Part shown: piece after piece, positions 4,201-64,000 of the stretch
How positions within the stretch are numbered: position 1 is the first letter of the stretch
Layout: every line of letters starts with the position of its first letter
DNA from: Alphaproteobacteria bacterium
GTDB lineage: Bacteria; Pseudomonadota; Alphaproteobacteria; UBA7985
Reading direction: 5' to 3'
Length of the DNA stretch: 64,000 bases
Assembly (NCBI GenBank): GCA_965661545.1
Contig: CBFIEF010000001.1
Span: 27,250-91,249, forward strand
Notes under the pieces: model-generated
The model's database searches: none
What the model was told of the DNA's origin: nothing
What the model saw: only the letters and a program-made list of their open reading frames with translations
Translations under genes and position numbers: made by a program

Positions 4201-4531
4201 CCTTTGGAAGGATTTCTTATCCGGGGGCGAGGGCATCAGCGCCTATGAAGACCTCAGGTCCTTGTTCTTCGATGGTGACGCGACGCTGGATGGCGTGGTG
4301 ATTCTGAGCCAAGGCGTGATGCAGACCAACTCGCTGGCTTTGAAAGGGCGGCAAGGCACCTTGCTGGCCAAGGGCGCGATCGAACTTGAAACGCTAGACG
4401 CACGCGGCTTTGTGCCGGATGCGCCGTTGCGCGTGGAGCTGTATCGGGCCGAAGACAGTCAGCTGGTCGAGCAAGTCTTATTGCTTACGGGTTCTCTGGC
4501 GGCGCCGGATGCGCTGTCGATTGAGCGCTAA
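1277..4531 (+). CDS. AsmA-family large envelope protein (1084 aa) with an N-terminal membrane anchor
   Basis: The ATG at 1277 is followed by a hydrophobic N-terminus (LGIFISALIGVFLVALSLMP). The long repetitive beta-rich body is typical of AsmA-like proteins. Family recall only. Confidence 0.65.
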   Translation: MLRLGIFISALIGVFLVALSLMPRFLSPSVYRTQALIGLTRALGQPVEAGDGAAITLLPRPKLQLTDVRVRGDGANINDILLSADTATFDLSGQALARGKFMVEAVELDRPVMSLSRSEDHSVTFGASPLFTGLTGTSDETSTLNRLTLKDGELHYYDEPFGQNFRFDIDELAIERVSGYAFEATGSVRSEDEPFGIAISFVPNANPGGERNFNIDLIREDQSVVNLRGAIDEKFGESLIIREDLDWKLTAENFQHPLFDRLAIADGQGVNIEARLLSDREGYDLRGLTLTRDNGEQMRGSARFVPGGEVPTVGLSLMGRGFTLSNSAAELPLRDWTALLPGAVADLGGVRVDFDIAAQDFRLPNGEIVERLKTQGTLKAGGLSLSSLKGKTESGLSLDLASLQVAGPDDLQFKGRLITDDATRFANDGDLAELIGSLGRLNFDGLVELVDGGLVISQGVVTTAQGAFNVSGMPFALDAATGFGQAGIELVTESLDLNAWTQLDSNTEAETDLAAQFRAITQRMRVLRTDSLSLIAEQANLGGRILDNLDARFSTRPSGETDIVASFTEDDGTRFDATGTLADDGQTLDYGQVGLVLNREPRAAEKAIARFAPAAMDNPLVRDILDRLPIDALTFTRTDPSRPWEMALRSGETVLSGSDVDATGNRFWTFSSDGASDLFQALDIPFSPIDEAGDVQLSGRQSEGELVGIGRMLGAEITLQELNDTADEDVNAGRAFQLRIKHDDAQGFLDSLGFNLALPPSTGPIDITLSVSRVDQNYGYRVDAALGDMLIRGNGFYGFETKNIAFDGEVNQIEVLPLLNALFIADAEDSVLSPALSSLSGQINLSVEQLGPLADASVAINFTPGRYTVEQLKGTFADGLLAGGELSVDGDVLAGADIFADLTVEVVGAAPQLGIATDTGLAFDTLSFRSNSFQARAQSMAEVLNAVDASFDVEGTATMALALTAINAASDVEEGLWKDFLSGGEGISAYEDLRSLFFDGDATLDGVVILSQGVMQTNSLALKGRQGTLLAKGAIELETLDARGFVPDAPLRVELYRAEDSQLVEQVLLLTGSLAAPDALSIER

Positions 4532-4775
4532 GCCGGGCAAAGAGCACCTGGCGGATTGCGCTGGGTAGCCCATTTCCGCCGCGCACTCGATCGATCGATG
4601 CAACGACGCCAGCGAGCGAGGCATTCTGCTCCCTTGCCAGTGCCTGTAACCCGTCCCAGAACACAGGTTCCAGCGAGATTGACGTTGAATGACCGGCAAT
4701 GGTCACGGAACGCTTGATCGGGCGTTGGCTCAATTGCAGCGAAAACAACCAGGTATTGAAGTCTTCCATGTTCAT
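4485..4775 (-). CDS. Small ribbon-helix-helix domain protein (about 96 aa)
   Basis: The translation (RPIKRSVTIAGHSTSISLEPVFWDGLQALAREQNASLAGVVASIDRVRGGNGLPSAIRQVLF) resembles the conserved alphaproteobacterial RHH family with the motif KRSVT..GH.TSISLE..FW......A...SL..L...ID......NLSSAIR. It overlaps the AsmA 3' end by 46 bp. Its ATG lies 17 bp from the divergent downstream gene. Confidence 0.45.
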   Translation of the reverse strand: MNMEDFNTWLFSLQLSQRPIKRSVTIAGHSTSISLEPVFWDGLQALAREQNASLAGVVASIDRVRGGNGLPSAIRQVLFARLSAQSTAHPAPPENP

Positions 4776-4792
4776 GTTCCAAGCCGTTCACG

Positions 4793-5629
4793 ATGCAAGA
4801 GTTTGATACGCTCATTGCCGTAGATTGGTCCGCGGCGTCGGTTCCGGTCAAGGGCGAGAACTCCATCTGGATCAGTCGCCGGGCAAAAGGCGAAGAACAC
4901 GTCCTGTTGAACTTCGCCACGCGCTTTGAAACCGAGGCGTACTTAGCCCAACAAATTGCAGAAAGTCAGGCGCGAGGGACGCGCTTGCTCATGGGCTTTG
5001 ATTTTCCATTTGGCTATCCTGATGGCTTCGTCGCAGCGCTGGGCGAGGGCGGTTCCCAGCCGCCTTGGCGGGTGATTTGGGAAACCTTTACGGCTTTGGT
5101 GGAGGACGACGCGCGCAATCGCAATAACCGCTTTGCCGTGGCGACGAAACTGAACCAGCGGATGGGGTTTGCCGAAGGTCCGTTTTGGGGGTGTCCGGCA
5201 AAGCAGGCGGGACCGTCCTTGTCGCCCTATCGACCAAAGCAGCATTTCCTTGCGGAGAAACGCCTGTGCGAAGTGCCTGTGCCCAAGTCACAGCCGGGTT
5301 GGAAACTCGCTTATGTTGGGTCGGTGGGTTCGCAGGGGTTGATGGGCATTCCGGTGCTGGAGCGACTGCGCGCTGCGCATGGGGTTCAGGTCTGGCCCTT
5401 TGACCCGCTGCCTGCTGATGGCCCCGTTCAGGTCTTTACTGAGCTGTATCTCAGCCTTTGGCCCGTCGGCGACTATGGTGGTCCGTGCAAGGATGCGGAT
5501 CAAGTGCAGGCGATGACGGACCGCTGGATCAGTAATCAGGCGGCCATACTGCGCTGGATGACGGCGCGCTATCCAAACGTGGTTTACGCCGAAGAAGGCT
5601 GGGTTTTGGGTGTCGAGCCGCCGGCTTAG
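4793..5629 (+). CDS. Conserved hypothetical protein (278 aa), possibly DUF429-like
   Basis: A clean ATG ORF with an N-terminal IAVDWSAAS...GENSIW motif and a central GFDFPFGYPDGF segment. No confident family assignment from memory. Confidence 0.6.
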   Translation: MQEFDTLIAVDWSAASVPVKGENSIWISRRAKGEEHVLLNFATRFETEAYLAQQIAESQARGTRLLMGFDFPFGYPDGFVAALGEGGSQPPWRVIWETFTALVEDDARNRNNRFAVATKLNQRMGFAEGPFWGCPAKQAGPSLSPYRPKQHFLAEKRLCEVPVPKSQPGWKLAYVGSVGSQGLMGIPVLERLRAAHGVQVWPFDPLPADGPVQVFTELYLSLWPVGDYGGPCKDADQVQAMTDRWISNQAAILRWMTARYPNVVYAEEGWVLGVEPPA

Positions 5630-7503: not shown

Positions 7504-9288
7504 TCAGAACGGTAGTGTGGAGCCAAATCGGAGGTTAACCTCTTGGCCAATGCTTTCGATCTTCGCCCAAATTTCCGCGCCCGCCACGTCTTGTGTCAGG
7601 CCGATGGTCAGGGCTCCCAGCTGGTCATATTCCGCTGACAGCGTGCCAATGCTCAGATCAAGCTCGCCTTTGGCGATCCAATACACGGGCTGGCTATCGA
7701 GCGCGTCTTCCAACACACCGATTTGTCCCTGGGCGGAGAACTGTGGCCCAGCCAGTTCGGCTTCTAGCCACCAGTCATTCTCGCTATCCAGACCCATGGC
7801 TATTCGGCTCGCCGGCAAGGGTGCAATGACAGCTTCAAGCTGCCACGCATCAAGAACGCCAGCGATATCGGCATCCAACAAGACATCTGCGCCTAGCGAA
7901 ACACCTCCAAAATCGAATTTTGCGCCGGCAATGGTATTTAAAGCGCGGGTTTGGAACCGAGGCACAGCGGCAACCGCAGCGCTCAAGCCCATGACAGACA
8001 GCTCGCCGGAGAGCACGACGCCATCGTCTGCGGTAACTGACACGATATCAGCCCACGGGCCATCAGCGCTGATCAGGCCCGCATGGTCTTCTGTGCTAAC
8101 GGTAAGGGAGCCGAAGCCGCCTTCGATGAACACGGATGCACCGCTGAAATTCAGCAGTTTGCTGACTGGTTGCATGTAAGCATTTGAGTCGGCTTCAAAC
8201 GGGCTTTGCGTCAAGCATGCCGCACCAATCACCAATTTTTCGGAATTACCGATCGTGCGGATTTCAGCGAACGGACCAACAAACACCTGCGCATTGTTGA
8301 CCAACTCGCCGCTGAGCTCGTCCGCGCCGGGGCTAAACAGAACCGTGGCGGCCTTGCTCGCCGTGCTGTGCCAAACCTCTGCCGGCAGATCAGTGGCATC
8401 GACCATGTTCGGCGTGATTTTTACCGCCTCGAATCGGGTTTGGTAAACCGCCGCCACAGATCCAAATCCCCCATCGCCCGTATTCAGAGAAATACGCGCA
8501 CCAAACGGGTTCGGCAAAGAGTTAACGGCAGAGGGCTTTCCAATGGTTGCCGTAGTCGTGATACCAGTGACCGCCCAGATTTCCCGCCTCGCCAGAAACT
8601 GACCTGCAGGCGCGAAATTGCCGGACTCTCCAACTGCATTGGCAACAAAGATGTCTTCCTTTGAACCACGTTGGAGGCCATTTCCCACCGCAGTACGAAA
8701 GTTAACCGCCGCAACTTGCGCCGGTGTGTTTTCAAATGTCGCGGCCCGGCCCACCATTTGGTTCGCCATGCGACCCGCCAGCATACAGATGTTTTCCGCC
8801 ATGAGTGGCGGGGCGGGAAGTTCGACCGCGGATCGGGTGCCGCCCAAAGTCATCCAGTCAGAATTGATTTTCACGGCAACGATGTCGTCGTCTGACAGCG
8901 GCATGCCGCCAAACGCGCCATAGATTTGCGCATTAATGTCTGTTGGACCTGCGACCGTTTTGCGAATCAAACGATGCTCTTCGACGCCGTTGGGGTCGGT
9001 GTAGTCAAACAAACTCAGTTTCAGCTCGTCCAGCGCATTCAGCGTCAACTTGCCGCCGAAAACCAGACCAGAGTCGGTACTGTTTTCTAAGTCGAGTTCG
9101 ATGTTGGCGAAGGTTGTGTAGTCGAACGCCTCGCCACTCTTGGACAGACCCACGACCGAGCTGAATCCAAGATCACCCCCAAGCGTGACGTAAGTTTCGG
9201 CGCCTGCTGATGCCCCATAGGTCATCAACACGCTCGTTGCCGTCAAAAACAATCTGCGTTTCGGCGCGCACACCCTGTGGTCCACCAA
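7504..9288 (-). CDS. Predicted outer-membrane beta-barrel protein (porin-like, 594 aa). The start codon is uncertain (TTG or GTG candidates).
   Basis: A signal-peptide-like N-terminus (KRRLFLTATSVLMTYGASAGA|ETY) is followed by a Gly/Ser/Thr-rich alternating beta pattern. The C-terminal ...RFGSTLPF ends in Phe, the typical OMP signature. Confidence 0.6.
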   Translation of the reverse strand: MVDHRVCAPKRRLFLTATSVLMTYGASAGAETYVTLGGDLGFSSVVGLSKSGEAFDYTTFANIELDLENSTDSGLVFGGKLTLNALDELKLSLFDYTDPNGVEEHRLIRKTVAGPTDINAQIYGAFGGMPLSDDDIVAVKINSDWMTLGGTRSAVELPAPPLMAENICMLAGRMANQMVGRAATFENTPAQVAAVNFRTAVGNGLQRGSKEDIFVANAVGESGNFAPAGQFLARREIWAVTGITTTATIGKPSAVNSLPNPFGARISLNTGDGGFGSVAAVYQTRFEAVKITPNMVDATDLPAEVWHSTASKAATVLFSPGADELSGELVNNAQVFVGPFAEIRTIGNSEKLVIGAACLTQSPFEADSNAYMQPVSKLLNFSGASVFIEGGFGSLTVSTEDHAGLISADGPWADIVSVTADDGVVLSGELSVMGLSAAVAAVPRFQTRALNTIAGAKFDFGGVSLGADVLLDADIAGVLDAWQLEAVIAPLPASRIAMGLDSENDWWLEAELAGPQFSAQGQIGVLEDALDSQPVYWIAKGELDLSIGTLSAEYDQLGALTIGLTQDVAGAEIWAKIESIGQEVNLRFGSTLPF

Positions 9289-9915
9289 CCAAGTCCCCCA
9301 ACGTAACTCTGTTTTTTGGTTCGCAGGGAAAGTGCCGCAGCAGCAGGGCCTGAGGGTAGTGTTTCTTCGGGTTCGTTTTTACAAAATGCGTTCCCACCGA
9401 AATCTTTGTCTGAGTAAGAAGTTAATCTATCACAAATTAGATATTATGCGTGCTGTTGATCAAAATGAACCCATCAAGAGTTTCTGTTTTATCATTTGAG
9501 AGAGGTCGAAATCACCAAAAATCGCATTTTGTAAGGCCGATTCTCTGCGTGATTCGATAATATTTTGGTGTTTTGAGAAGAGTTGGGCGTTCTGTTGCTA
9601 GGTGCCCAAGACCCCACCTACACATGCTAATGCGCAGGGATTTAGTTTCACGAACTCAGCTGCTTACGCAGCAAGAGCAACTCGTGGAGCAACATAGTTG
9701 TTTGCAACTGTGTTTAAATGACCCGGTTACGCCGGAATCATCACGGGCAAAACAAACAGCTTTCAATGCACGTCGATCCTATTTCGCCCCCAGCAAACAA
9801 CCAACTCGATCAGAATTGGCTCTTTGGTGGAGGCGCCGGGTACCGCCCCCGGGTCCGCAACATCTATTACCTGCTTGGTTTATCGCCATAGAGCGAGGCT
9901 CATCAGGGAATATAA

Positions 9916-10021
9916 GCGTTTTCACGCGCTATGCAATTGGCTACTGATACCGGGCTATGAGTGATTAGGCGTTTTCATAACCCTGGGAATTGGCTACGGC
10001 TTCGGCATTATGAGTGATAAA
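9916..10021 (+). repeat. Two tandem copies of a 53-bp modular repeat (9916-9968 and 9969-10021) that span the thyX start codon
   Basis: Both copies share three blocks in register with an exact 53-bp period: GCGTTTTCA, AATTGGCTAC and TATGAGTGAT. The two 10-11 nt spacers between the blocks are unrelated. Copy 1 carries the mini-ORF ATG AGT GAT TAG (9957-9968). Confidence 0.85.
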
Positions 10022-47417: not shown

Positions 47418-47495
47418 GGCGATTGTAGCTCAGTTGGTTAGAGCACCGGTTTGTGGTACCGGGGGTCGTGGGTTCGAACCCCATCAGTCGCCCCA
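47418..47495 (+). tRNA. tRNA-His (anticodon GTG) with a genomically encoded G-1 and an encoded CCA
   Basis: Manual fold: acceptor GCGATTG/CAGTCGC, D-arm GCTC..GAGC, anticodon stem CCGGT/ACCGG with the loop TTGTGGT, T-arm GTGGG-TTCGAAC-CCCAT, discriminator C, then CCA. An extra G at 47418 pairs with C73. Confidence 0.85.
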
Positions 47496-51837: not shown

Positions 51838-54645
51838 TTATTCCTCGGTTTCGCCATCCACTGCGTCCACAGCTTCCCCATCGTCATCGTCCGAAGAGCC
51901 CGGATCGTCAAGACGGGCAACAGACACGATTTGTTCACCATCCGCCACACGGAAGATATAAACGCCTCGGGTCGAGCGCCCTGCGATCCGAATTTCATCA
52001 ACCGATGTTCGAATGAGTGTGCCGCCGTTGGTGACCAGCATCAGTTGGTCGCCGTCCTGTACTGGGAAGCTGGCGGCAACGGAGGTTGTTGCCGAGCCGG
52101 AGCGTCCCAAATCGATCGCTGCTACGCCCTGATTGCCGCGACCCATGGTGCGGAACTCATAGGCGCTTGTGCGCTTGCCCAGTCCGTCTTCTGAGAGGGT
52201 CAGGATGAACTGTTCCGCCGCCGCAAGCTGGGTCAGGCGTTCTTGTGACAAGCCGCCACCGCCAACATCCGTTCCGCTCGCGCCTTCTTCCTCTGCGCGC
52301 CGCATCGCGTTGGCGTGACGGACATAGGCGTCACGCTCCTCAGCCGTTGCCGTTACGTGGTTCAGAATGGCCATGGAGATCACACGATCGCCAGCGGACA
52401 AATTCATACCGCGCACGCCAGTGGAGTCACGCCCCACAAAGACCCGCACATCCGTTACCGGGAAGCGAATGGCTTTACCGCCCTGCGCGGACAGCAGCAC
52501 GTCCTGATCTTCCTGACAGATCGCCACGTTGACGAGGCTATCGCCCTCATCAAGCTTCATGGCGATTTTGCCGTTTGCTTTGACCGAGACGAAGTCGCTC
52601 AACCGGTTCCGGCGGATGCCGCCGCTGGCGGTGGAGAACATGACAAACTGATCATCCGCCTGCTCTTCATCTTCAGGCAACGGCAGGAATGCGGTGATGG
52701 TCTCACCCTGTTCCAGCGGCAGAATGTTGACCATCGCCTTACCGCGCGCTTGCGGTGTGCCTTCAGGCAGGCGCCAGACTTTGAGCTTATAAACCATGCC
52801 GCGTGAGGAGAAAAACAGCACAGGCGTATGTGTGTTGCACACCATGACGTTGGCGACGAAATCTTCGTCACGCGTGGACATGCCCGAGCGGCCTTTACCG
52901 CCGCGTCGCTGCGCGCGATAGGTGTCCAGCCCGACGCGCTTGACGTAACCGCCGTGGCTGACCGTTACGACCATATCTTCGCGTGGGATCAGGTCTTCAA
53001 TGTCGTAGTCGGCTTCGTAGTTTTCGATCGACGTTCGGCGATCGTCACCAAATTCCTCACCAACAGCAAGCAACTCGCTGCGCACCAAGCCCATCCGCAA
53101 ATCACGGTTGGACAGGATTTCCAGGTATTCTTTGATCTTTGCCGCAAGTTCTTCGAGTTCGGAGGCGATTTTGTCCCGCTCCAAACCGGTCAGGCGAGAG
53201 AGCTGCAGCGCGAGGATGCCGCGTGCTTGTTCTTCGGACAGCTTGTAGGTGCCATCATCCGTGACACCGCGACCCGGCTCGTCCAGTAACTCGATCAGTG
53301 GGCGAATGTCTTCCGCTGGCCAAGCGCGCTCCATTAGCTCCAGACGCGCCGCCGTCGGGTCTGTGGAATTGCGGATCAGGGAGATGACATCATCGATGTT
53401 CGCAACCGCAACAGCCAGACCCACCAAAATGTGCGCCCGATCGCGGGCCTTGCCCAGCTCGAACGCCATCCGGCGCGTGATGACTTCTTCGCGGAAATTG
53501 ACAAAGGCGCTGATGATCTGCTGCAAGTTCAGCATCTCAGGGCGGCCACCGTTAATCGCCAGAATGTTGCACCCGAAGGAGCTTTGCAGCGGCGTGTGCT
53601 TGAACAGCTGGTTAAGGACCACTTCAGCTTGATGATCGCGCTTGATCTCGATCACCACGCGCATCCCTTGACGGTCGGATTCATCGTTGGCACTTGCAAC
53701 GCCTTCAACGATCTTGTCTTTGGCCAGCTGGACAACACGCTCAACAAGGCGCGCTTTGTTTACCTGATAGGGCAGTTCGGTGACCACGATGGTTTCGCGG
53801 TCTTTGCGGTTTTCTTCGATGTGGGTCTTAGCCCGCATGATGACCGAACCACGTCCGGTGTGGTAGGCCGAGCGAATGCCTGAACGTCCTAGGATCATCG
53901 CGCCGGTCGGGAAGTCTGGACCGGGGATGTGTTCCATCAACTCGTCGATGGTGATCGTCGGATTGTCGATGTAGGCCGCGCACGCGTTGATGACTTCGCG
54001 CAGGTTGTGCGGCGGAATGTTGGTTGCCATGCCCACGGCGATGCCGCCTGCGCCATTAACCAGCAGGTTCGGATAAGGCGCGGGCAGGACTTGTGGTTCC
54101 TGCTTGCTCTCGTCGTAGTTGGGTTGGAAATCGACGGTGTTCTTGTCGATGTCCTCGAGCAGGCCGGAGCCGAGTTTGGACAGGCGGGCTTCTGTGTAAC
54201 GGTAGGCCGCTGGTGGATCGCCATCCATGGAGCCAAAGTTGCCTTGGCCGTCGATGAGCATGGCGCGCATGGAAAACGGCTGCGCCATTCGCACCATGGC
54301 GTCGTAAATCGCGCCATCGCCGTGTGGGTGGTAACCACCCATAACTTCACCAACGAGGTTCGCGGATTTGCGGTACGCGCGGTTCCACTCGTACCCGCCG
54401 GTTTTGGCGGTGTAGAGGATGCGGCGGTGTACGGGTTTCAGTCCATCGCGGACATCGGGAAGCGCACGGGAAACGATGACTGACATGGCGTAGTCCAAGT
54501 AGGACTTCCGCATTTCTGCAACGAGAGAAACCGGTGCGATATCATCAGGCAGCGCGCTTGCGCTCAATCCGTTTTCGTCGTCATCGCCGCCGTTGCCGGA
54601 GGCTTCTGCACTCACTGGTGGAAGGTCGTCTTCGTTATCCGACAC
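51838..54645 (-). CDS. gyrA: DNA gyrase subunit A
   Basis: The QRDR context (AAMRYTE-like ...[18 protein letters not shown]), beta-pinwheel repeats and an acidic C-terminal tail. The start is a GTG, with an unusually acidic 35-aa N-terminal extension. Confidence 0.9.
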
Positions 54646-54807: not shown

Positions 54808-55386
54808 TTAGAACGGAATGTCGTCGTCGAAGTCGTTTCCACCGCCGGACGAACCGCCACCAAAACTGCTCGATCCGCTGCTGGATCCGCCGCCTGAACC
54901 GCCGCCAAATCCGCCGCCGCCAGAACCGCCAGAGCCACCGCCAAAGCCGCCGCCGGACGAACTGCCGCCGCCGCCGCCGCCGCCGCCGCCGAAGTTACTA
55001 TCGCCACCGAAGTCGCCACCGCCACCGCCGCCGCCTTCGCCGCGACCGCCGATCATCTGCAGCTCTCCACGGAACTGGCTGAGGACAATCTCAGTGGTGT
55101 ACTTGTCGTTGCCTTCCTGATCCTGCCACTTGCGTGTCTGGAGCTGACCTTCGATGTAGACTTGGCGACCGCGCTGCAAGTAGCGCTCCGCCACGTCGGC
55201 CAAACGCTCGTTAAAAATCACCACGCGATGCCATTCGGTCTTCTCGCGCTGCTCCCCGCTTCCACGGTCACGCCAGCGCTCAGACGTGGCGATGGAAAGC
55301 TGAACGACTTTGCTGCCGTTGTTGGTGGTACGGACCTCTGGATCGCGGCCAAGGTTGCCGACCAGAATGACTTTGTTAACGCTCAT
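54808..55386 (-). CDS. ssb: Single-stranded DNA-binding protein
   Basis: An OB-fold N-terminus ([19 protein letters not shown]), a Gly-rich linker and the acidic tip DDDIPF. ATG at 55386. Confidence 0.9.
54965..54990. repeat. Perfect (GCC)n microsatellite of about 8.7 units inside the ssb Gly-linker coding region
   Basis: Uninterrupted gccgccgcc... run. The surrounding region from about 54830 to 55050 is an imperfect GGC/GCC-rich repeat. Confidence 0.9.
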
Positions 55387-55519
55387 TTTTACCAAGCTTT
55401 CGTAAATCTGTTATACGCCGGTTCTAAGGACGTAACTGCACAAGAGCAATAACCGGGCTTGTGCATAACCTGCAAGAACAATATACGAACATTCGCATAA
55501 GGCAAAAGGAAGCGAAGAG

Positions 55520-56230
55520 ATGGATATGACGGGGGTCAAAGGGCTGCTTTTTGACAAGGATGGAACTTTGCTGGACCTGCACGGTACGTGGGGCGTCGTT
55601 CTGAATGATTTGATCTGGTATTCTGCTGGTGAAGGCGAGCAGCGGGTCGCTGAAGACCTCGCACGGATTGGCGGCTATAACTTGGCCACACAGAAATTCA
55701 CGCCGGACAGCCAGTTGGCTCAGGGCGACTGGGGATCGATCTTTCAAGCGTGGCAGGAGCGGCTGGGGCCAGAGCAGGGCAAGCGCATGGTCACCTTCCT
55801 TGAAGACATGCGCACGGGTAAGCGCACGCGTCAGTCCGTCGCCTTGGGCAACATCCGGCCCACGATACAGGCACTGGCCGAAGCAGGTTTCGTAATGGGC
55901 ATCGCGACCAACGATTCGGAGGCCGCAGCTCGGCGCGATATGGAAGGTCTGGACGTGACAGAATTCTGCACCGTGATCTATGGCCACGACAGCCACGGCA
56001 GCAAGCCGGGGCCAGAAATGATGACTGCCTTTTGCGCTGAAACCGGCCTGAAGCCGGGGCAGGTAACGATGGTGGGTGACACCATGACGGACCTGAACTT
56101 CGCCCGAAACGCGGGCGCGCATTCTTGCATTGGGGTGATCGAAGACAGCTACGTCGATCCGCGCTTCCGCGCCGGTGTCGATGTTCGGATCGAGCACGTG
56201 CGCGAAATTCCGACTTTGCTGGGCGTTTGA
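55520..56230 (+). CDS. HAD-superfamily hydrolase (phosphoglycolate phosphatase-like)
   Basis: FDKDGTL motif I, the ATND motif and GDTMTD motif IV. Confidence 0.75.
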   Translation: MDMTGVKGLLFDKDGTLLDLHGTWGVVLNDLIWYSAGEGEQRVAEDLARIGGYNLATQKFTPDSQLAQGDWGSIFQAWQERLGPEQGKRMVTFLEDMRTGKRTRQSVALGNIRPTIQALAEAGFVMGIATNDSEAAARRDMEGLDVTEFCTVIYGHDSHGSKPGPEMMTAFCAETGLKPGQVTMVGDTMTDLNFARNAGAHSCIGVIEDSYVDPRFRAGVDVRIEHVREIPTLLGV

Positions 56231-56303: not shown

Positions 56304-57671
56304 TTAGCCGTCGTCGGCGTCTAACAGGCTCACACGGCTGCTTTCGGCGTTGATCCATGCTTGCAGCGTGATGATCCAGCGCTCGTGCAGCTCGTCGCTG
56401 GACAGCGCGGCTTTCCACGCATCAACGGCTAGGGGCGTGTTGCCCCGCGCTTCTTCCAACAGGCCTTGGACCACGCGCAGTTCGGGGGTCATGCCGTGCA
56501 GGTGGGTCATGTACATTGTGATGTCTTCATCCAGCACGATGTTGATATGGCCCAGCCCGGTGAAGCTATCGAGGTAGAGAACCTGACGGATCTCGGCGAC
56601 GATCTCTTCGAGCGTAAACGCGGAACGCAGAAATTCGCCGTTCTTGCGCTGCTCGGAGGCGAGGTAAGAACCGGAGAGAATGGCATTGTAGAAGTCGGTG
56701 ACGTTTGAGGTCTCGCGGTTGAAACCACAGCTGCGCGCCATGCGGCTCCAGCCCATTTTGCGGGCGGAGCGGCGCGAGTCTGCGAACTTGCCACACAGCA
56801 ATAGGGTCCAGCTTGCGAAGCGCACGCCAGTTGTCTCGGCTTCGGCCTTGGCGGTGTAGCGTTCTTGCTCCATCAACCGGTCACGCACGCCTTGCAGCAG
56901 GCCCTGACAGTGGGCGGCTTGGGCGGTTGGGGTCTCGAGGAACAGCAATTTGGTAATGTTGGTTGGCTTGGTCTGGTCGTAATCCTGCTGCAACCGGCGG
57001 GCGAGGTCATCGCGGCCTGCGCGCATGGCGGCGGTGATCGGCCAGTCGAGGAAATCAGATCCAAAAGCGGTTTCAGCAAAGCTCATGAACTTCTGAATGT
57101 CGCCGACCAGAAATTCTGCCTTGGGGTAGTAATCCAGCTCCAGCCGCTGCGGCGCTAGACCGCGCGGGACCAGCGCTTCGCCGAACCAGAGATTGCCGTA
57201 ATACTGATCTTCGAGGCTGAAGTAGCGTGTAACGAGGCGAACCAACTCTTGGATGTCTGGACGGGCCAAGACAGCATCGGGAACAGCATCGAGCGAGAAT
57301 TTGCCCAGTTCCTCATTCATGTTCGAGAACGCCACGGACGCGCGGACGATGTCGGCGATGCCTGACATCACTTCTGGCTCTTCAGTGGCGGTTCCCATCA
57401 CCGACAGCAGATGGTTGGACAGGTCTTGCCGGTAGAATGTCCCACACAGGCGCAGCTCTTCTTGCAAATCTCGGGCAGCGCGAATGCTGTCCCAATCTTC
57501 GCTCCAATTGTCCGAAAGTTCGGCAGCGCTGGTGAAGGTTAGCATCATATCGAGGAAGATGCGGCGGTAGGGATCTTGCGGGTCGAATGCCTGTGCCTGG
57601 GCCAAAGTGGTCCAGCCGGTTAGGGCCAGAGCCATCCCAGTCAGCAGCGCTTTGATCGGTTTTTTCAGCAT
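56304..57671 (-). CDS. Secreted protein of unknown function (455 aa). It is the distal gene of the Bat/MoxR-like operon.
   Basis: The ATG at 57671 sits 4 nt after the stop of the upstream gene (TGA TTG ATG). Signal peptide MLKKPIKALLTGMALALTGWTTLAQA. No recognisable domain. Confidence 0.6.
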   Translation of the reverse strand: MLKKPIKALLTGMALALTGWTTLAQAQAFDPQDPYRRIFLDMMLTFTSAAELSDNWSEDWDSIRAARDLQEELRLCGTFYRQDLSNHLLSVMGTATEEPEVMSGIADIVRASVAFSNMNEELGKFSLDAVPDAVLARPDIQELVRLVTRYFSLEDQYYGNLWFGEALVPRGLAPQRLELDYYPKAEFLVGDIQKFMSFAETAFGSDFLDWPITAAMRAGRDDLARRLQQDYDQTKPTNITKLLFLETPTAQAAHCQGLLQGVRDRLMEQERYTAKAEAETTGVRFASWTLLLCGKFADSRRSARKMGWSRMARSCGFNRETSNVTDFYNAILSGSYLASEQRKNGEFLRSAFTLEEIVAEIRQVLYLDSFTGLGHINIVLDEDITMYMTHLHGMTPELRVVQGLLEEARGNTPLAVDAWKAALSSDELHERWIITLQAWINAESSRVSLLDADDG

Positions 57672-57674
57672 CAA

Positions 57675-60600
57675 TCAGACCTCCGCTTCAGACAGATATT
57701 CGCGGATCAAGTAGTCCGCGATAATGGCGATGAGCAGCAGCAGGACAAGGATCCATGTCAGATCCCAAACCCGCTCTTTGGTGCCGCTTTGATCCAGTTG
57801 GACCAACGAGGACGGCACCTGCAGGTTGCTCGGGTCTAGCACGACCCCGCCGCTGGCTTTCGCGATGGCGCGCAAGGCGGATAGATTGGCACCGGAATCC
57901 AGCGCCAACGGCTCTGTAGCGAGGTGCAAGAAAGCAGGATAGACCACGCCGGATTTCGTGAAACTCCGCCCGCGACCCTGGCGGTCTGTGCCGTCACCGC
58001 TGATCACCAGCTCGAAAGCTTCCGGCAGATCCCGAATGCTGCCCAAATTGCCGGTCCAACGCGCCTCCGAGCCCGTCAGCTCAAACTGAGCCAGCAAATC
58101 ACCACGCGTGGAAGGCTCAATGTCGGTGTTGCCAGTTGCTGCTTCTGCTTCTGGTTTTGGTTCTGTGTGGCCGTAAAGCTCCACGGAAAAGCCGGTTGGG
58201 GCAAAGGGGTCGATGGACTGGTGATTCAGTGTCAGCAGAACTTCGTTCCGTCCATCCCGTGTCAGCGACAGTTCAATCGCATCGCGGGGGCTGGTTCGCG
58301 TGGCCCATGCAAAGGCGCGGGCAAGGGCGACTTGGAAGATCGCACTGTTGGTCAGCGAGCCGTCTGCGCCACCATCGCGCAGGGATGTCCCAAGCGCAGA
58401 AACCCGGCCCCCGACCGCTGCGCGCTCAATGAACCCTTCGGCGGTGCTGGACGGTTCCCGCTGGAGCACCCAGTCGGTCCATATGGCCAAATCAAGCGCA
58501 CGGCCCTGTTCAGGCTGATAGTCTTGCTGGCCCAGAATAAAGCGAGCTTCGTCGCGAGCAGAAAGAACCGAGTAGCCGTTGATCGCGCCCAAGCCCATTT
58601 CCTGTGCGGGTAAGTCGTTCAAGAAGCGGTGGCGCGCGTTGAATTGCGGGTCGTCAATCCGCTCGTCCTTGTAGCTCGTCATCCGCCGCGCCAACTGTCC
58701 GATGGGAATTTGAAACCGGTCGAGATAAGCGATTCCGCCGCCGGCTTCAGCGACGCTGTACAGGTTGTTAAACCCTTCGGAAGCGATGCCCGCGCGCTGG
58801 CGCAAGGTGGCGTCTCGGCTGTTCAATACTTCGTAAATATCAGGCAGGGACGTGTCACCATACGCCATTGCGATACCGTTGATGATGAAGTCATCTTCGC
58901 TGTTCAAACGCGCAGCCAAAGCTGGCGCTGTGTCGCGCTGGAAGATGCCGTCTTCGTCAACTTTCCACGACAGATAAGCGCCTGTATCCGGATCGCCACC
59001 GTCGGCAACGATCAGAACCCGGCGCTCGTCTGGCAGCTCAAAACCGGCTTCTTCGGCCATCACCAGTGAGCGACGAGTTTCGAAGAGGGCGTCGTAAATA
59101 TCGATTCCTTCGGGCTGTAGCCCCAGCAGGCGACGACGCTCGAATTCGTCGGCCAACTGGCTCAGGGAGTCACGGATCTGTTTTTCGAGATCTTCGACGC
59201 CTTGAAAGGTATCCAGCGGCACCAGCTCGTGCACTTCGTCAGAGAAGCCAAAAATACGCACCAGTGAGCCTTCGGACAGCGGCGCGAAGCTCTCGACGAT
59301 ATAACGAACGGCCCGGTCCAACGTGTCTTCTTCGTAAAACAAGGACGCTGAGACGTCGAGGATGCCGACGGCAAGCAGCTTTGGGTCACCGGATGAGCCC
59401 TTGGGCTCTACATTCACCGGTAGCACCCGCGCCACTGGCGTCGCAGCGTAGCCTTTGACGCCGTATGTCTCGTCACCGCCAGCAACAAACAAACCCCCGC
59501 CGCGCTGCACGAAATCTTCGATTTCGCCAAGAATCGCCTGCTGGGTCATGCCGTCACCAATTTCGCCGGGGGCAAAGTCGGTCATCAGGATCAGATCGTA
59601 GTCGAACAGGTCCAGCGGATCGGTGGAATCAACGCCTGTCCGCCGAGGCAGATCGCTGGGCACCACACGGTCGATGTTCGAGTTGAGCTCTTCGATGATC
59701 GTCTCGATCAGAGAAATCGGCGCAGCACCGCCGTCGAGCCACAGCACTTGAGGCGTGGACATGGTTGGGACCATGCGCGACTGGACCGTATCGGGCAGGC
59801 GCGGCTGGGCGAAGCGGCTGTCGGGGACCGGCTCGGGGTCGTTGTCGAGCTTGACCGTCATCTGCACAAACGAGCCTTCGCCTTCCTGATCGAGGATCAG
59901 CGGCGTACACGATACGGTTTCTACCAGCTCATCAATAATGATCGCAGCCGTTCCTGCCGGATCACCGTCCAAGCAGGTAAAGCGGAACAAGTCTTGCACT
60001 TTGTCGCCCTGGAGCGCGCCAAGGTAGGCAACGCGCTGCTCGGCTTGCTGGCTGATGGCAAGGTCGATGGGCGTGGCAACCAAAGGCTCTTCCAGATCCC
60101 CCTGACTGAGCAGCGATAACCCTTGGTCATCACCAATGATAAAGCGGGGATCGTCCGGGTTGGCGAGGCGGTGAGAGGGCCGACCCTGCTGCGGCACCAC
60201 CAGCACGGGGACGCTGCCCCCGGCGAGAAGCTGCAACACTTGAGTGATCTGGGCGTCGTCGGGTGCCCCTTGGCGCGTGGTGAGGCCGTCGGTCAGCAGG
60301 ACGATTGCTTGTGCCGGCGCACCTGCGCCGGTGGCGAGCGTTTCTGCGACAACAGCCGACAAGTCGGTTGAAGCGCCGCCAATGTCATTCAATGCGCTGG
60401 ACGCGCTGCTGAAAGAACTGACTGTGCGGCTGCCTTGGGCGAAGACGCGGCGGTGAACGTCAGCTGGAACGCCCAAGCCCCGAACGATATCTGCGGTCAG
60501 GCGATCGGCGTCGGACAAGTAGTCACCGACTTGCGGTGCGTCCGCGTGGACGAGGCTTTCGGACAGATCGAGCAGGACATCAACGCGGGCCTTGCTTGTC

Positions 60601-60809
60601 GCTGGAACAGTCTGCCGGTATTCGGTCACGCCGAGCCACAGCAGCCCAATCAGGCCCACGCTCAGCCCGCGCAACACCAGACTGGTGACGAGAACCGACA
60701 GGCGCTGGTTCCGCTCGATCCCTGATAGTCGGTCCAGCAGCCGCCGGATGAGCGGGGCGAGCCAGAACAGCAGGCCAGCGAGGACAAGGGCGATCATCAG
60801 CAAACTCAT
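57675..60809 (-). CDS. Large membrane-anchored vWA-like protein (1044 aa) with a class-I glutamine-amidotransferase-like segment
   Basis: Two N-terminal TM helices, a DxSxS-like site (LDLSESL) and a later LILMTDFAPGE...GGGLFVAGG segment. The start ATG overlaps the upstream stop as ATGA. Confidence 0.65.
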   Translation of the reverse strand: MSLLMIALVLAGLLFWLAPLIRRLLDRLSGIERNQRLSVLVTSLVLRGLSVGLIGLLWLGVTEYRQTVPATSKARVDVLLDLSESLVHADAPQVGDYLSDADRLTADIVRGLGVPADVHRRVFAQGSRTVSSFSSASSALNDIGGASTDLSAVVAETLATGAGAPAQAIVLLTDGLTTRQGAPDDAQITQVLQLLAGGSVPVLVVPQQGRPSHRLANPDDPRFIIGDDQGLSLLSQGDLEEPLVATPIDLAISQQAEQRVAYLGALQGDKVQDLFRFTCLDGDPAGTAAIIIDELVETVSCTPLILDQEGEGSFVQMTVKLDNDPEPVPDSRFAQPRLPDTVQSRMVPTMSTPQVLWLDGGAAPISLIETIIEELNSNIDRVVPSDLPRRTGVDSTDPLDLFDYDLILMTDFAPGEIGDGMTQQAILGEIEDFVQRGGGLFVAGGDETYGVKGYAATPVARVLPVNVEPKGSSGDPKLLAVGILDVSASLFYEEDTLDRAVRYIVESFAPLSEGSLVRIFGFSDEVHELVPLDTFQGVEDLEKQIRDSLSQLADEFERRRLLGLQPEGIDIYDALFETRRSLVMAEEAGFELPDERRVLIVADGGDPDTGAYLSWKVDEDGIFQRDTAPALAARLNSEDDFIINGIAMAYGDTSLPDIYEVLNSRDATLRQRAGIASEGFNNLYSVAEAGGGIAYLDRFQIPIGQLARRMTSYKDERIDDPQFNARHRFLNDLPAQEMGLGAINGYSVLSARDEARFILGQQDYQPEQGRALDLAIWTDWVLQREPSSTAEGFIERAAVGGRVSALGTSLRDGGADGSLTNSAIFQVALARAFAWATRTSPRDAIELSLTRDGRNEVLLTLNHQSIDPFAPTGFSVELYGHTEPKPEAEAATGNTDIEPSTRGDLLAQFELTGSEARWTGNLGSIRDLPEAFELVISGDGTDRQGRGRSFTKSGVVYPAFLHLATEPLALDSGANLSALRAIAKASGGVVLDPSNLQVPSSLVQLDQSGTKERVWDLTWILVLLLLIAIIADYLIREYLSEAEV

Positions 60810-62860
60810 GCGGAAACCCTCCGGCTTGCGCCCTTCCGGAACCGACCGGCCAGCACGATTAAGAACAGCGCTTCTAGGACGGCAAGGGCGAGCAAGCCCA
60901 TCACCAAGGGACGGGTCAATCGGCGTAGGCCATCGCCCCGTGACAGCGCGGAGAAGTCGGGTAAGGCCGTGACAGATGCGCGGGTCAGCGCGGATTCTTC
61001 AGCGTTAAACAGCGCCAGTGACAGCGGCACCGTCTGTGACAGCCCTTCGCCGCTGAGGAAATACAGACCGGCCTGGTCCAACCGCCACCGAGAGACGCCC
61101 AAATCATCCGTGATAACCGGTGGAATTTCAGCATCATCGGTCCGAACCACAGCGTTCCGCACGCCATCCAGCGTCAGCGGGTCGCCAGCAGCGAGGTACT
61201 GGGGGATGCGCTGGCGTCGGTCGTCCATCCACTCGAGGGTGTTCATCATCATAAAGGTCAGGGTCAGGCAGTCGTCAGGGCCATAGATTTGGGCGTCGCG
61301 GCGGTCTTCGACTGTGTTGTCCGCTTCGGCATCCGAGGGGATGAAATTGGTGCAATAGGCATGGGGGTCGAAGCCGAGAAATAGCATCTTAGCGGCCGGA
61401 AGAAGCGCGCCATCAAACTCGGTATCTTGGCGTTCGGCGGCGAAGGCTGTGACGATCTCGACCCGATCTTCAGCGATAACTGTCAGCGCATCTTGCGGAT
61501 CTACGTCGCGCAGCAGCGGCACAACCCGTGACTTTTCGTCAGCAAAAGGCAGGGGGCGCAGCGATGGGCCAACCGTCACACGGCCAATCATGGGCTTGAG
61601 GCCGGCCATCACCGGATGACGGTTTTCCGACGCTTGCCAAGCGAACTGGCGCGCGCCGCTGCCGTCTTCCGATCGGCCAGCACCGGGGCGGGTTTCGATG
61701 ACAATCGCATTGGCGTTCAGTTCTTCGAACAGGGGGCCTTCGGGACAGCGGTCAAAAATCACGGCGTCATAGCCGCGATAGTCCGCATCGTCCGTGATGC
61801 CCGCGCTTTCTGACAGGCGGATGTTGGGGTGAGGCAAGAAGCGGTCAAACAGATAGCCGTTGCCTTCGCAGCGGACGATATGCAGATCAAACTGCTGCAC
61901 CACTTCCGGTACAACCCACAAGCTATCATCCAGCGCCAATGGGTCGCCGGAACCCGAGGTCAGGATGAGTTCTTTGGGGCCAGGGCCGAGTTGTACGGTC
62001 TGCTCCAAAACCCGATCCAGCGGAAAGGTTTCACGCGCGCCCGCAGGCAGGTCAAAGGGCCGACGCAGCGTTACAACAGCTGGCTTGCCCCGGACACGTG
62101 CCGTCAGCGAAACATCGCGCAGCGGCTCAGTCCCAAAGTTGCGCAGCGACACTTCCTTGGGCGCATCAAACAGGTTCAGTCCACCGCTCACGCCCTCAAA
62201 CCCAACGTTGGAGGGCAAGTCATCGCCCACATCGATCCAGTTCAATCGTCGAGGCGCGTTGATCTCTTCGCTCAACGGGCGATCGGTCACCAGCGTCAGC
62301 GCACCAACGCCGCGTGACGCGGAAAGCGCGGCGAGGGCGGAGAGGCGCTGGTCCATCGGCGCAGGCATCGACGTGGCGCTCAGCGTGTTCAGCTGGGCCC
62401 GGGCTTCGAGGCGATCGGCCACAAACGGCACGTCGTCGCCCAAGTTGGTCAGGCTCACCAGTGCAACGCTTGCACCGGCAGCCATCGCCTTATCAATCTC
62501 TGCATCCGCAGCCGTGACGGCCCGGTCAAACCGGGTTTTCCCGTTTCCAGCTTCGGCGTTCATGGACGCTGACGTATCAACCACGATCAAACGCTTAGGC
62601 GCAGGCAAAAGCGCCGAAAGGCCGAGCGCGATTAATGCCAGCAAAGCAAACATCAGCGCATAGAGCCACCGGTGCCACTTGTGCGTCATCGACAGGTTCT
62701 GGAACGTGGTGCGTCGCGGCAAATCTCGAAACAGCAACAGCGAGGAAACGTCCAGCCTTTGCCGCCGCGCCGGCAGGGACAAGAACGCCAGCGCGGGCGC
62801 TAGGATCAAAGGCAAAGCCCACAGAAAAGATAGGCCAAAGGTAAAGCCGAAAACCGTCAT
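60806..62860 (-). CDS. BatA-like protein with an N-terminal double-transmembrane domain (TIGR02226-type) and a vWA domain (684 aa)
   Basis: The N-terminus FGFTFGLSFLWALPLILAPALAFL, then MIDAS-like VVDTSASM. It starts 3 nt after the DUF58 stop. Confidence 0.7.
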   Translation of the reverse strand: MTVFGFTFGLSFLWALPLILAPALAFLSLPARRQRLDVSSLLLFRDLPRRTTFQNLSMTHKWHRWLYALMFALLALIALGLSALLPAPKRLIVVDTSASMNAEAGNGKTRFDRAVTAADAEIDKAMAAGASVALVSLTNLGDDVPFVADRLEARAQLNTLSATSMPAPMDQRLSALAALSASRGVGALTLVTDRPLSEEINAPRRLNWIDVGDDLPSNVGFEGVSGGLNLFDAPKEVSLRNFGTEPLRDVSLTARVRGKPAVVTLRRPFDLPAGARETFPLDRVLEQTVQLGPGPKELILTSGSGDPLALDDSLWVVPEVVQQFDLHIVRCEGNGYLFDRFLPHPNIRLSESAGITDDADYRGYDAVIFDRCPEGPLFEELNANAIVIETRPGAGRSEDGSGARQFAWQASENRHPVMAGLKPMIGRVTVGPSLRPLPFADEKSRVVPLLRDVDPQDALTVIAEDRVEIVTAFAAERQDTEFDGALLPAAKMLFLGFDPHAYCTNFIPSDAEADNTVEDRRDAQIYGPDDCLTLTFMMMNTLEWMDDRRQRIPQYLAAGDPLTLDGVRNAVVRTDDAEIPPVITDDLGVSRWRLDQAGLYFLSGEGLSQTVPLSLALFNAEESALTRASVTALPDFSALSRGDGLRRLTRPLVMGLLALAVLEALFLIVLAGRFRKGASRRVSA

Positions 62861-62863
62861 GGA

Positions 62864-63967
62864 TCAGACCGCCTCGATTTCTGCAGGTTCACCGGCATAG
62901 CCCTGACTGGCCATCGCCGCGAGAATACGGTGCACGTCGCTGCGGTTGTGATCCCCGGCAGCACCGGCGTCAAAGGACGCGTGGCCGAGGTTGAGACTGC
63001 GTGCGGCCCCAGACAGCGCAGCGCCGTGCGCGGATCGAACGCGGGTGTAGGCCTTGGACGCTGCACGGGTAAAGGCGAGGCGTTGCAGCACGCCGCTTTC
63101 CATATCTACGATCTGACGCGCTTGGCTCAGATCCTGATCCTGCGCGCCGGAAACCTGACACAGCACCCCGCGAATGTTGGGGTGGCTGAGGAACTTCAAT
63201 CCGCGTGCCACGTTCTGTGCAGACAGCATCAGACGCCGCCGCGCCTGCGCGCGCACACTGTTCAGCAGCCCGCGCTCTGTCGACGTTAGCGGCAGTTGCG
63301 GTAGGTCTTGCGGGACGGCGTCATTCATCCGGTCGTCGTCGACGTCGAACAGCAAGTCGGTCAGAACCACCACTAGCGCCCCCTGATTGCGCCAGTCCAG
63401 CGAAGCGGCACCAAGCGCGTCAAAGTTAGTTGCGCCGCTGGGTTCCAGCCCAGCAAGCCGTTCACGCATCGAGCCAAGCAGTTGGCGTGCGTGCAGCACG
63501 TTGATAACCCGCTCGCTCGCTACGCTATCGCCAAAGGGCATAACGCGCACGGCGTAACCGCTGTTCAAGCCAATCAGTGCCAATTGCAGGGTCAGCTCGA
63601 TCGTCGAGCGGAATTTGTCCTGCCAGCCGCCTGTTGCCATCGAGGCGGAGGTATCCAACGCCAAAACCAGGCGGGGTTGGTGTTCGTCTTGGACCAAACG
63701 GGTATAGAGCCGCTTTGACCGACCATAGAGCGACCAGTCCACGCGCCGCACGTCATCACCGGGCGTGTAGGTCCGGTGCTGTTTGAACTCCAAGCTGTCG
63801 CCGTCCAGCGAGTTCAGGTGCGGCCCCATCGCCGCGCCGCGTGGGGGGATCCATTGCGGCGGCAAGGTCAAGTCGCCCACTGCGCGCAGAAACGCTGGGT
63901 CCAAGTCGTCAAGACGCCTGTGCGCACCCATCGGCTCGGGCTGGAGATCAGGAGAAGATTGGGCCAA
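62864..63967 (-). CDS. DUF58-domain protein (partner of MoxR-type AAA+ ATPases). The start is a TTG at 63967 or the ATG at 63931.
   Basis: The DUF58 core EFKQHRTYTPGDDVRRVDWSLYGRSKRLYTRLVQDEHQPRLVLALDTSASM. An upstream minus-strand gene ends at the TAG at 63972-74, only 4 nt before the TTG. Confidence 0.72.
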   Translation of the reverse strand: MAQSSPDLQPEPMGAHRRLDDLDPAFLRAVGDLTLPPQWIPPRGAAMGPHLNSLDGDSLEFKQHRTYTPGDDVRRVDWSLYGRSKRLYTRLVQDEHQPRLVLALDTSASMATGGWQDKFRSTIELTLQLALIGLNSGYAVRVMPFGDSVASERVINVLHARQLLGSMRERLAGLEPSGATNFDALGAASLDWRNQGALVVVLTDLLFDVDDDRMNDAVPQDLPQLPLTSTERGLLNSVRAQARRRLMLSAQNVARGLKFLSHPNIRGVLCQVSGAQDQDLSQARQIVDMESGVLQRLAFTRAASKAYTRVRSAHGAALSGAARSLNLGHASFDAGAAGDHNRSDVHRILAAMASQGYAGEPAEIEAV

Positions 63968-63971
63968 CGAT

Positions 63972-64000
63972 CTAGTGACCCAAGTGGCTTACGGCGTCCG
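63972..64000 (-). CDS. 3' end of an upstream minus-strand gene, truncated by the window. It is probably the MoxR-like AAA+ ATPase expected in this operon.
   Basis: An open frame runs off the window edge and ends at the TAG (complement of 63972-74), 4 nt before the DUF58 start. Its identity is inferred from operon architecture only. Confidence 0.3.

Follow-up and report, generated by a model that had tools for sequence, protein, structure and literature searches.

The right-hand end of a 64,000-nt stretch of alphaproteobacterial DNA (assembly GCA_965661545.1, contig CBFIEF010000001.1, positions 27,250 to 91,249 of the forward strand; the whole stretch is referred to below as the window) carries four closely packed minus-strand genes, encoding a DUF58 protein and three further proteins that we call A, B and C, and ends within a fifth gene, which encodes a MoxR ATPase. 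By gene order and homology, these genes belong to a conserved, rare and discrete six-gene cassette, X-MoxR-DUF58-A-B-C, of which the window holds the four distal genes. In the order in which they would be transcribed, the genes are:

63972..64000, minus strand: 3' end of the MoxR gene (8 codons and the stop), the rest lying beyond the window edge
62864-63967, minus strand: DUF58 gene, 367 amino acids (aa), TTG start
60806-62860, minus strand: gene A, 684 aa, ATG start at 62860
57675-60809, minus strand: gene B, 1044 aa
56304-57671, minus strand: gene C, 455 aa from its ATG; a TTG in the same frame precedes it by one codon, at 57674

Together DUF58-A-B-C span 7,664 nt (56304-63967). A first-pass annotation had described four minus-strand genes chained by overlaps or short gaps over about 7.6 kb, with the upstream gene cut by the window edge; its coordinates and all of its junction strings were confirmed. 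The MoxR stop (TAG, 63972-63974) is separated from the DUF58 start (TTG, at 63967) by the spacer atcg, and the DUF58 stop (TGA, 62864-62866) from the ATG of A (62860) by tcc. A and B share an ATGA overlap (60806-60809), and the stop of B (TGA, 57675-57677) is immediately followed by the TTG (57674) and ATG (57671) of C. Could the starts have been mis-set? In the most similar locus, L001, and in L003-L006, the DUF58/A junction sequence TGATCCATG is unchanged and TTG-GCx is the sole start codon kept upstream of the AHRRLDDLDP block of DUF58, lying 4 or 12 nt past the MoxR stop. Conservation of this kind, judged across the relatives, is not chance, and because it extends to both the TTG-GCx start and the junction the starts are not mis-set, as the claim of coupling had supposed. 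In the more distant cassettes L010, L014 and L016 the called DUF58/A and B/C genes share a 4-nt overlap. GAGG or GGAGG lies 9-15 nt 5' of the starts of A, B and C, within the preceding gene; the DUF58 TTG has no obvious Shine-Dalgarno sequence. Across the 8.7-kb stretch we found no promoter-like (sigma-70-like) sites, and its terminator-like sites showed no excess over shuffled sequence. The 73-nt gap after C folds no better than shuffled sequence (z -0.08) and has no significant hairpin, so that no terminator is claimed there.

The gene at the window edge had been expected to be a MoxR (AAA_3) gene ending at 63972, and comparison with L001 bears this out. Its codons (63972-63998) translate as DAVSHLGH and a stop, and these last 9 codons (stop included) match the C-terminus of the 386-aa MoxR of L001, which ends in LIADAVSHLGH. 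The L001 protein (encoded at 7720-8880) has AAA_3 (E 3.1e-54) and AAA_lid_2 (E 1.8e-11) domains with the motifs PGLGKT and LLADEINRA, and a MoxR gene is likewise present in L010, L014 and L016. The L001 protein also has a ~75-residue N-terminal extension and, around VAGTTYKPGQDYTKGTDVAAPDTGTDASG, a ~20-residue insertion in the AAA_3 domain, residues 78-229 covering only 130 profile positions.

A further gene, which we call X, lies 5' of moxR and is kept in all cassettes (L001 5417-7657, ~746 aa; L014 382-2502; L016 505-2673; L010 1-1625); next to the genes of the window it would fall beyond the edge. The first-pass annotation was right that the genes form a coupled unit, but the unit comprises six genes where five had been described. 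The X protein contains five hydrophobic segments, a ~365-residue region with a weak tetratricopeptide repeat (TPR) signal after the first of them, and an acidic, proline-rich, strongly conserved C-terminal tail (GLDVSDSEVP...VGGxDDAGEPxDYxTGLPxR...PRQxVPxRY). No family could be assigned to it; X is a predicted polytopic membrane protein that is private to this branch. Directly 5' of X, L001 encodes a class A penicillin-binding protein (PBP; 2400-4925; Transgly, Transpeptidase and PCB_OB domains), a neighbor seen in L001 that fits an envelope theme. In L014 this position is taken by a DUF4096 gene, and in L016 the contig end is reached.

How widespread is the cassette? A scan of species-representative genomes with the 684-aa A protein gave six loci at 80-96% identity (L001 at 96%), all in marine metagenome-assembled genomes (MAGs) labelled Alphaproteobacteria or 'Geminicoccus sp.'; an exact-sequence look-up of A returned nothing. 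Close relatives in public records are annotated 'hypothetical protein' and come from Alphaproteobacteria, Rhodospirillaceae and TMED89 MAGs; nothing ties the host to the Rhodobacterales, the order in which a synteny survey had been suggested. At 22-66% identity the cassette recurs end to end in marine alphaproteobacterial MAGs, in Tara contigs and in the gammaproteobacterium Candidatus Thiosymbion oneisti, whose C-family member is WP_133511622.1. Pairwise BLAST of the components present in L001, L010, L012, L014 and L016 showed homology over most of the length, with identities among cassettes of 56-66% for MoxR, 37-43% for DUF58, 27-34% for A, 30-31% for B, 27-33% for C and 22-25% for X. The arrays in L010, L014/L015 and L016/L017 have an X of 706-801 aa, a protein of 612-783 aa in the A position and one of 1061-1129 aa in the B position. 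Family databases recognize little of this: none of the four window proteins matches NCBIfam, DUF58 is their sole above-threshold match in Pfam, and in PADLOC the only match is a marginal one of MoxR to mad8 (E 0.003), with DUF58, A, B, C and X all unmatched. The view that the four genes match no well-characterized pathway is borne out.

The domain and topology features on which the rest of the analysis draws, all on the minus strand, are:

63641-63655: DUF58 protein residues 105-109, DxSxS motif (DTSAS)
62609-62836: A residues 9-27 and 66-84, N-terminal transmembrane (TM) hairpin; 38-residue loop with 8 lysine or arginine residues (K/R)
62564-62578: A residues 95-99, von Willebrand factor A (vWA) motif DTSAS
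60851-60907: A residues 652-670, C-terminal TM segment, followed by a 14-residue tail with 5 K/R
60639-60803: B residues 3-57, TM hairpin; 17-residue loop with 5 K/R
60555-60569: B residues 81-85, vWA1 motif DLSES, invariant across the family
59403-59750: B residues ~354-469, GATase1-like domain
59343-59357: B residues 485-489, vWA2 motif DVSAS, invariant across the family
57705-57761: B residues 1017-1035, C-terminal TM segment
57588-57671: C residues 1-28, predicted Sec-type signal peptide

The first-pass DUF58 assignment proved sound (PF01882, E 1.6e-18, 67.1 bits against a cutoff of 23.4). The protein is vWA-like and carries one cysteine; neither a TM segment nor a signal peptide is predicted in it, so it is predicted to be cytoplasmic.

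A had been called a BatA_N-vWA protein. Its own Pfam matches fall below the gathering scores (BatA PF07584, E 5.5e-4, 20.7 bits against a cutoff of 25.9; VWA_2, E 2e-4, 22.4 bits against 27), but it can be aligned end to end with the Pfam-positive BatA+VWA_2 proteins of loci L007 and L009, has the same TM hairpin, and shares with them invariant D95, S99, T192 and D193. On this alignment A is probably a divergent BatA-type protein. Its ectodomain of ~570 aa contains 4 cysteines (331, 372, 503 and 531) that are conserved in the cassette and absent from the two aligned generic homologs.

B is more complex than at first described: the vWA and GATase1-like parts stand, but the predicted TM segments number three instead of two, and there is a second vWA domain. 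After the TM hairpin come vWA1, a beta region with C279 and C301, the GATase1-like domain, vWA2 and a beta-sandwich. C279 and C301, which are invariant within the cassette family, the scope in which this was assessed, are the only cysteines of B and lie outside the GATase1-like domain. With a B family profile, residues 365-469 matched the GATase1-like structures 2gk3, 3soz and 3rht (E 9e-8 to 2e-5), and residues 480-549 matched the vWA protein PTMP1; the residue-level alignment with 3rht includes the GGGLFVAGGDETY...VLPV block. The AlphaFold2 (AF2) model of B is too poor for a whole-chain reading and was used at the domain level only, for low-confidence secondary structure and for a Foldseek search, which returned vWA domains. 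A profile comparison of A with B gave a weak vWA-to-vWA match (probability 35%).

Is the GATase1-like domain an enzyme? In a Pfam scan the B sequence alone has no match to PF07090, whereas the family profile retrieves PF07090-bearing proteins at E values down to 1.5e-18; membership in GATase1_like thus holds at the profile level only. Invariant residues of the domain are G437-G439, L440, G444, G445, E447 and G450. The idea that B is a catalytic class I glutamine amidotransferase was rejected, because the domain has no cysteine; it is probably a scaffold rather than an enzyme. The three structures, 3rht, 2gk3 (STM3548-like) and 3soz (STM1381), share a GGGL..GG..Y.G...LLPV block with B. They are short proteins (~250 aa), and for two of them the depositors chose the name 'cytoplasmic protein'. 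In B, by contrast, the domain forms part of an ectodomain predicted to be periplasmic, with a vWA domain directly after it.

C begins with a predicted signal peptide, as claimed at first pass: a basic stretch, then a hydrophobic one, then AQA, with predicted cleavage at AQA|FDP. It was read from sequence features and from its conservation, since it is kept across the relatives. The mature N-terminus is an invariant FDPxDPY-like sequence in which D30, D33 and P34 never vary, and four cysteines (76, 255, 293 and 315) are also invariant. The AF2 model is all-helical, with a predicted local distance difference test score (pLDDT) of 85-97 in the N-terminal half and poor values in the C-terminal half. 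C has no match in Pfam, NCBIfam or PADLOC, and its profile run against sequences of the PDB gave marginal matches to designed TPR proteins only. A word-indexed search found just 12 relatives, all at least 71% identical, and when 1.84 billion cluster representatives were searched exhaustively with HMMER the family came to 11 clusters in all. Six more distant members (429-511 aa) were examined for gene context. In L010, L014/L015 and L016/L017, C is the last gene of the X-MoxR-DUF58-A-B-C array; on L011, L012 and L013, which are short contigs, the gene just before C is a large one, in L012 a full-length 1132-aa B homolog (the upstream genes on L011 and L013 are partial, and B identity was established for L012 among these three). 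By these contexts C is confined to the position after B, and it is a predicted secreted all-alpha protein private to this branch. A tblastn search of 72,556 plasmids with B and C gave no match.

The cassette has the marks of the MoxR-DUF58-vWA class: an AAA_3 MoxR, a DUF58 gene directly downstream, and then vWA proteins bearing metal-ion-dependent adhesion site (MIDAS) motifs. The closest non-cassette relatives of B are membrane proteins of 730-1070 aa with VWA and GATase1_like (PF07090) domains, reached by the family profile at E ~1e-18; E values of the full-length profile drop from 0 to 1e-18 with no intermediates. Such proteins occur in a generic module, exemplified by L007 and L009, that reads [unknown]-MoxR-DUF58-BatA/VWA_2 (628-663 aa)-VWA/GATase1_like (860-958 aa) and has the same gene order and tight packing as the cassette. 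In its B counterpart, too, a TM hairpin precedes the first of the vWA domains, and this protein shares a GGGL..GG.E..G...LLPV core followed by a DxSxS vWA domain; in BLASTP of B against one relative (P0030), residues 343-532 aligned, spanning the GATase1-like core and the DxSxS vWA domain. Identity between generic and window proteins is just 23-30%, over parts of their length. No C-like gene lies downstream in L007 or L009. Their upstream genes were considered as relatives of X and rejected; C is no relative of them either (hhalign probability < 1%), nor does the one resemble the other. The cassette thus adds X upstream and C downstream, neither with detectable relatives in the generic loci. 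Since A and B are related to the generic proteins and arrays without X and C exist, we take the cassette to be a branch of this widespread four-gene module that is discrete and divergent and has acquired or kept two genes of its own.

Where would these proteins act? A and B have short, uncharged N-termini, and their hairpin loops (8 and 5 K/R, respectively), like the tail of A (5 K/R), are predicted to be cytoplasmic because they are rich in these residues (the positive-inside rule). All cysteines of A (4), B (2) and C (4) are conserved across the cassette, and the counts are even, as expected for periplasmic disulfides. In Borrelia the BatA-like protein BB0173 is an inner-membrane protein whose vWA domain was shown experimentally to be periplasmic (PMC5700661). 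From the topology rules, the even, conserved cysteines and this precedent, the ectodomains of A and B (~570 and ~960 residues) and mature C are predicted to be periplasmic. A further clue comes from single chains of 1430-1658 aa that combine PF07584, VWA and PF07090 (P0093, P0095, P0096, P0106, P0107, P0115, P0122 and others); such natural fusions of A-type and B-type proteins suggest that A and B function jointly, as a single unit. These fusions come from other lineages, for example from a Lachnospiraceae MAG.

We consider it probable that the region is the distal two-thirds of a six-gene cassette, coupled and read in one direction, that specifies a MoxR-driven complex for envelope assembly or maintenance. 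In such a complex MoxR, presumed to assemble into the ring usual for AAA+ ATPases, would act in the cytoplasm together with the MIDAS-bearing DUF58 protein, which would serve as the MoxR adaptor, as family knowledge suggests. A and B, each held in the inner membrane by its TM hairpin and C-terminal anchor, would act together, as the fusions suggest, and their ectodomains would offer three MIDAS-type sites on the periplasmic side. The partners or clients that bind these sites there may be C and perhaps parts of X, and the invariant acidic mature N-terminus of C would be a candidate MIDAS ligand; both suggestions are speculative. ATP-driven remodelling from the cytoplasmic side would then assemble or maintain an envelope structure.

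A possible precedent comes from the RL3499-RL3502 operon of Rhizobium leguminosarum. Vanderlinde et al. (2011, J Bacteriol 193:2684; cited in PMC3893208 and PMC5118466) reportedly studied this operon, under a title on membrane integrity and cell morphology. Like the cassette it is alphaproteobacterial and headed by a MoxR of the MRP type, and RL3501 is listed among conserved membrane proteins of hypothetical status (PMC3893208, PMC4255674). RL3499 is reported to matter for both the integrity of the membrane and the morphology of the cell (PMC3893208), and insertions in RL3499-RL3501 are reported to impair growth on complex medium (PMC3893208, PMC5118466, PMC4255674). The operon differs in having four genes, with no equivalents of X or C reported, and is likened to the cassette by description; on that analogy it would be the only functional precedent in the class.

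Several points weigh against an envelope complex. Every member of the cassette is known from sequence alone, and the topology was derived from simple hydropathy and charge counts. The AF2 models score poorly overall (pLDDT 54.4 for B and 56.8 for C). A cytoplasmic ATPase would have to act on domains that face the periplasm, a difficulty shared by the whole class. Finally, a Leptospira strain deleted for all bat genes showed no phenotype (PMC3557215), so an envelope role is not general across the class.

The genes next to the cassette in the window are housekeeping genes:

55520-56230, plus strand: HAD-family hydrolase gene, convergent on gene C, with 73 nt between the stops
54808-55395, minus strand: single-stranded DNA-binding protein (SSB) with a ~70-residue Gly/Ser-rich linker
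51838-54645, minus strand: GyrA

Farther away lies a two-piece (permuted) transfer-messenger RNA (tmRNA) gene of the alphaproteobacterial type (9581-9940, minus strand; Rfam alpha_tmRNA, 236.8 bits; ARAGORN tag peptide ANNYVAPRVALAA), which marks the host as alphaproteobacterial; a tRNA-His (GTG; 47419-47495, plus strand) is the sole tRNA within the 64 kb. Several plus-strand open reading frames of 150-270 aa lie opposite the coding strand of A and B (for example 57924-58613 and 61860-62663) and are taken as artifacts of GC-rich coding DNA. In Candidatus Thiosymbion oneisti and one metagenomic locus, opposite-strand NACHT/TIR and CHAT/NACHT genes follow the cassette (L014 11412-16782; L016 11410-15072). 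Such neighbors, typical of conflict islands, are absent at the alphaproteobacterial loci.

What else could the cassette do? A bolder proposal, which we regard as unlikely, is that it encodes a distinct and undescribed trans-envelope machine, in which MoxR and DUF58, working through the K/R-rich hairpin loops of A and B, would control the metal-dependent (MIDAS) capture or release of C, with its FDPxDPY sequence as the ligand. If so, it would be the first MoxR system whose periplasmic client is both identifiable and genetically linked.

MoxR serves the maturation of methanol dehydrogenase, NorQ and NorD that of NO reductase, CoxD that of CO dehydrogenase, and RavA and ViaA that of Nuo. The cassette might likewise encode a dedicated chaperone that matures some enzyme or respiratory complex encoded elsewhere, and the MoxR ATPases that have been studied mostly mature specific complexes with the help of vWA cofactors (PMC3893208). 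We nevertheless think this rather unlikely. A client enzyme gene is linked to the cassette at none of the loci, and the neighbors vary, from PBP1A, HAD, SSB and GyrA at the alphaproteobacterial loci to NACHT/TIR/CHAT or OmpA elsewhere. Moreover, that four of its six products are found in no other setting and belong to the membrane or periplasm suggests that the cassette builds a structure of its own.

A true Bacteroides-type aerotolerance (Bat) operon, serving oxygen or oxidative-stress tolerance, was implied by the original Bat/MoxR-like label. The part of that label that holds is membership in the MoxR-DUF58-vWA class; 'Bat' applies in a loose sense only. The order MoxR, DUF58, then a TM-anchored vWA protein is indeed that of BatI/BatA-E of Bacteroides fragilis and of the spirochaete, Francisella and Riemerella homologs; Bat operons also have helical or TPR-type accessory proteins, and A has its weak match to the BatA N-terminus. 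BatB is a short TM-vWA protein, quite unlike the large double-vWA/GATase1-like B. The BatD model of Pfam matched none of the four window proteins (E <= 0.1) and no member of the B family (E <= 1), no TPR or SH3 model of the kind found in BatC and BatE is listed for the four, and X and C are unrelated to the Bat accessory families. Riemerella moxR and batA mutants are altered in oxidative and heat tolerance (PMC11834572), but the Leptospira all-bat deletion had no oxidative-stress phenotype (PMC3557215). We therefore hold a Bat operon in this strict sense to be improbable.

An anti-phage or other biological-conflict system of the MoxR-vWA type is very improbable. The NACHT/TIR/CHAT genes adjoin the cassette in L014-L017, and MoxR has a weak match to bpMoxR (24.4 bits, below the gathering score), but those genes are on the opposite strand and missing from the alphaproteobacterial loci, and the neighbors in the window are housekeeping genes; PADLOC gave MoxR only the marginal mad8 match, the cassette showed no effector domain such as a nuclease or protease, and B and C had no match in the plasmid collection. 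Equally improbable are independently expressed neighbors or mis-set starts, with neither coupling nor common function: start codons are not provable by sequence, the DUF58 TTG has no obvious Shine-Dalgarno sequence, as noted above, and independent promoters are reported within the Leptospira bat cluster (PMC3557215), but order and tight junctions recur at 27-96% identity, C is never found away from B, and the 8.7 kb hold no promoter-like site.

An envelope assembly or maintenance complex thus remains the reading that we prefer. What is new is the six-gene cassette with its private X and C; the MoxR-DUF58-BatA-VWA/GATase1_like module was already known, and on present evidence the cassette, as its sequences place it, is a lineage-restricted variant of that module in uncultured marine bacteria. 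Few bacterial gene clusters that still lack a mechanism are as widespread as the MoxR-DUF58-vWA operons, and their clients are usually unlinked and unknown. The cassette is a compact variant that encodes every partner together, including a likely periplasmic partner, C, that is small, secreted and found nowhere else. If C (or X) is indeed a client or ligand of the vWA/MIDAS domains, this would be a tractable system for communication between a cytoplasmic AAA+ protein and periplasmic vWA domains, and C, being tightly linked and, by prediction, secreted, would offer a concrete handle on the targets of MoxR-vWA envelope modules.

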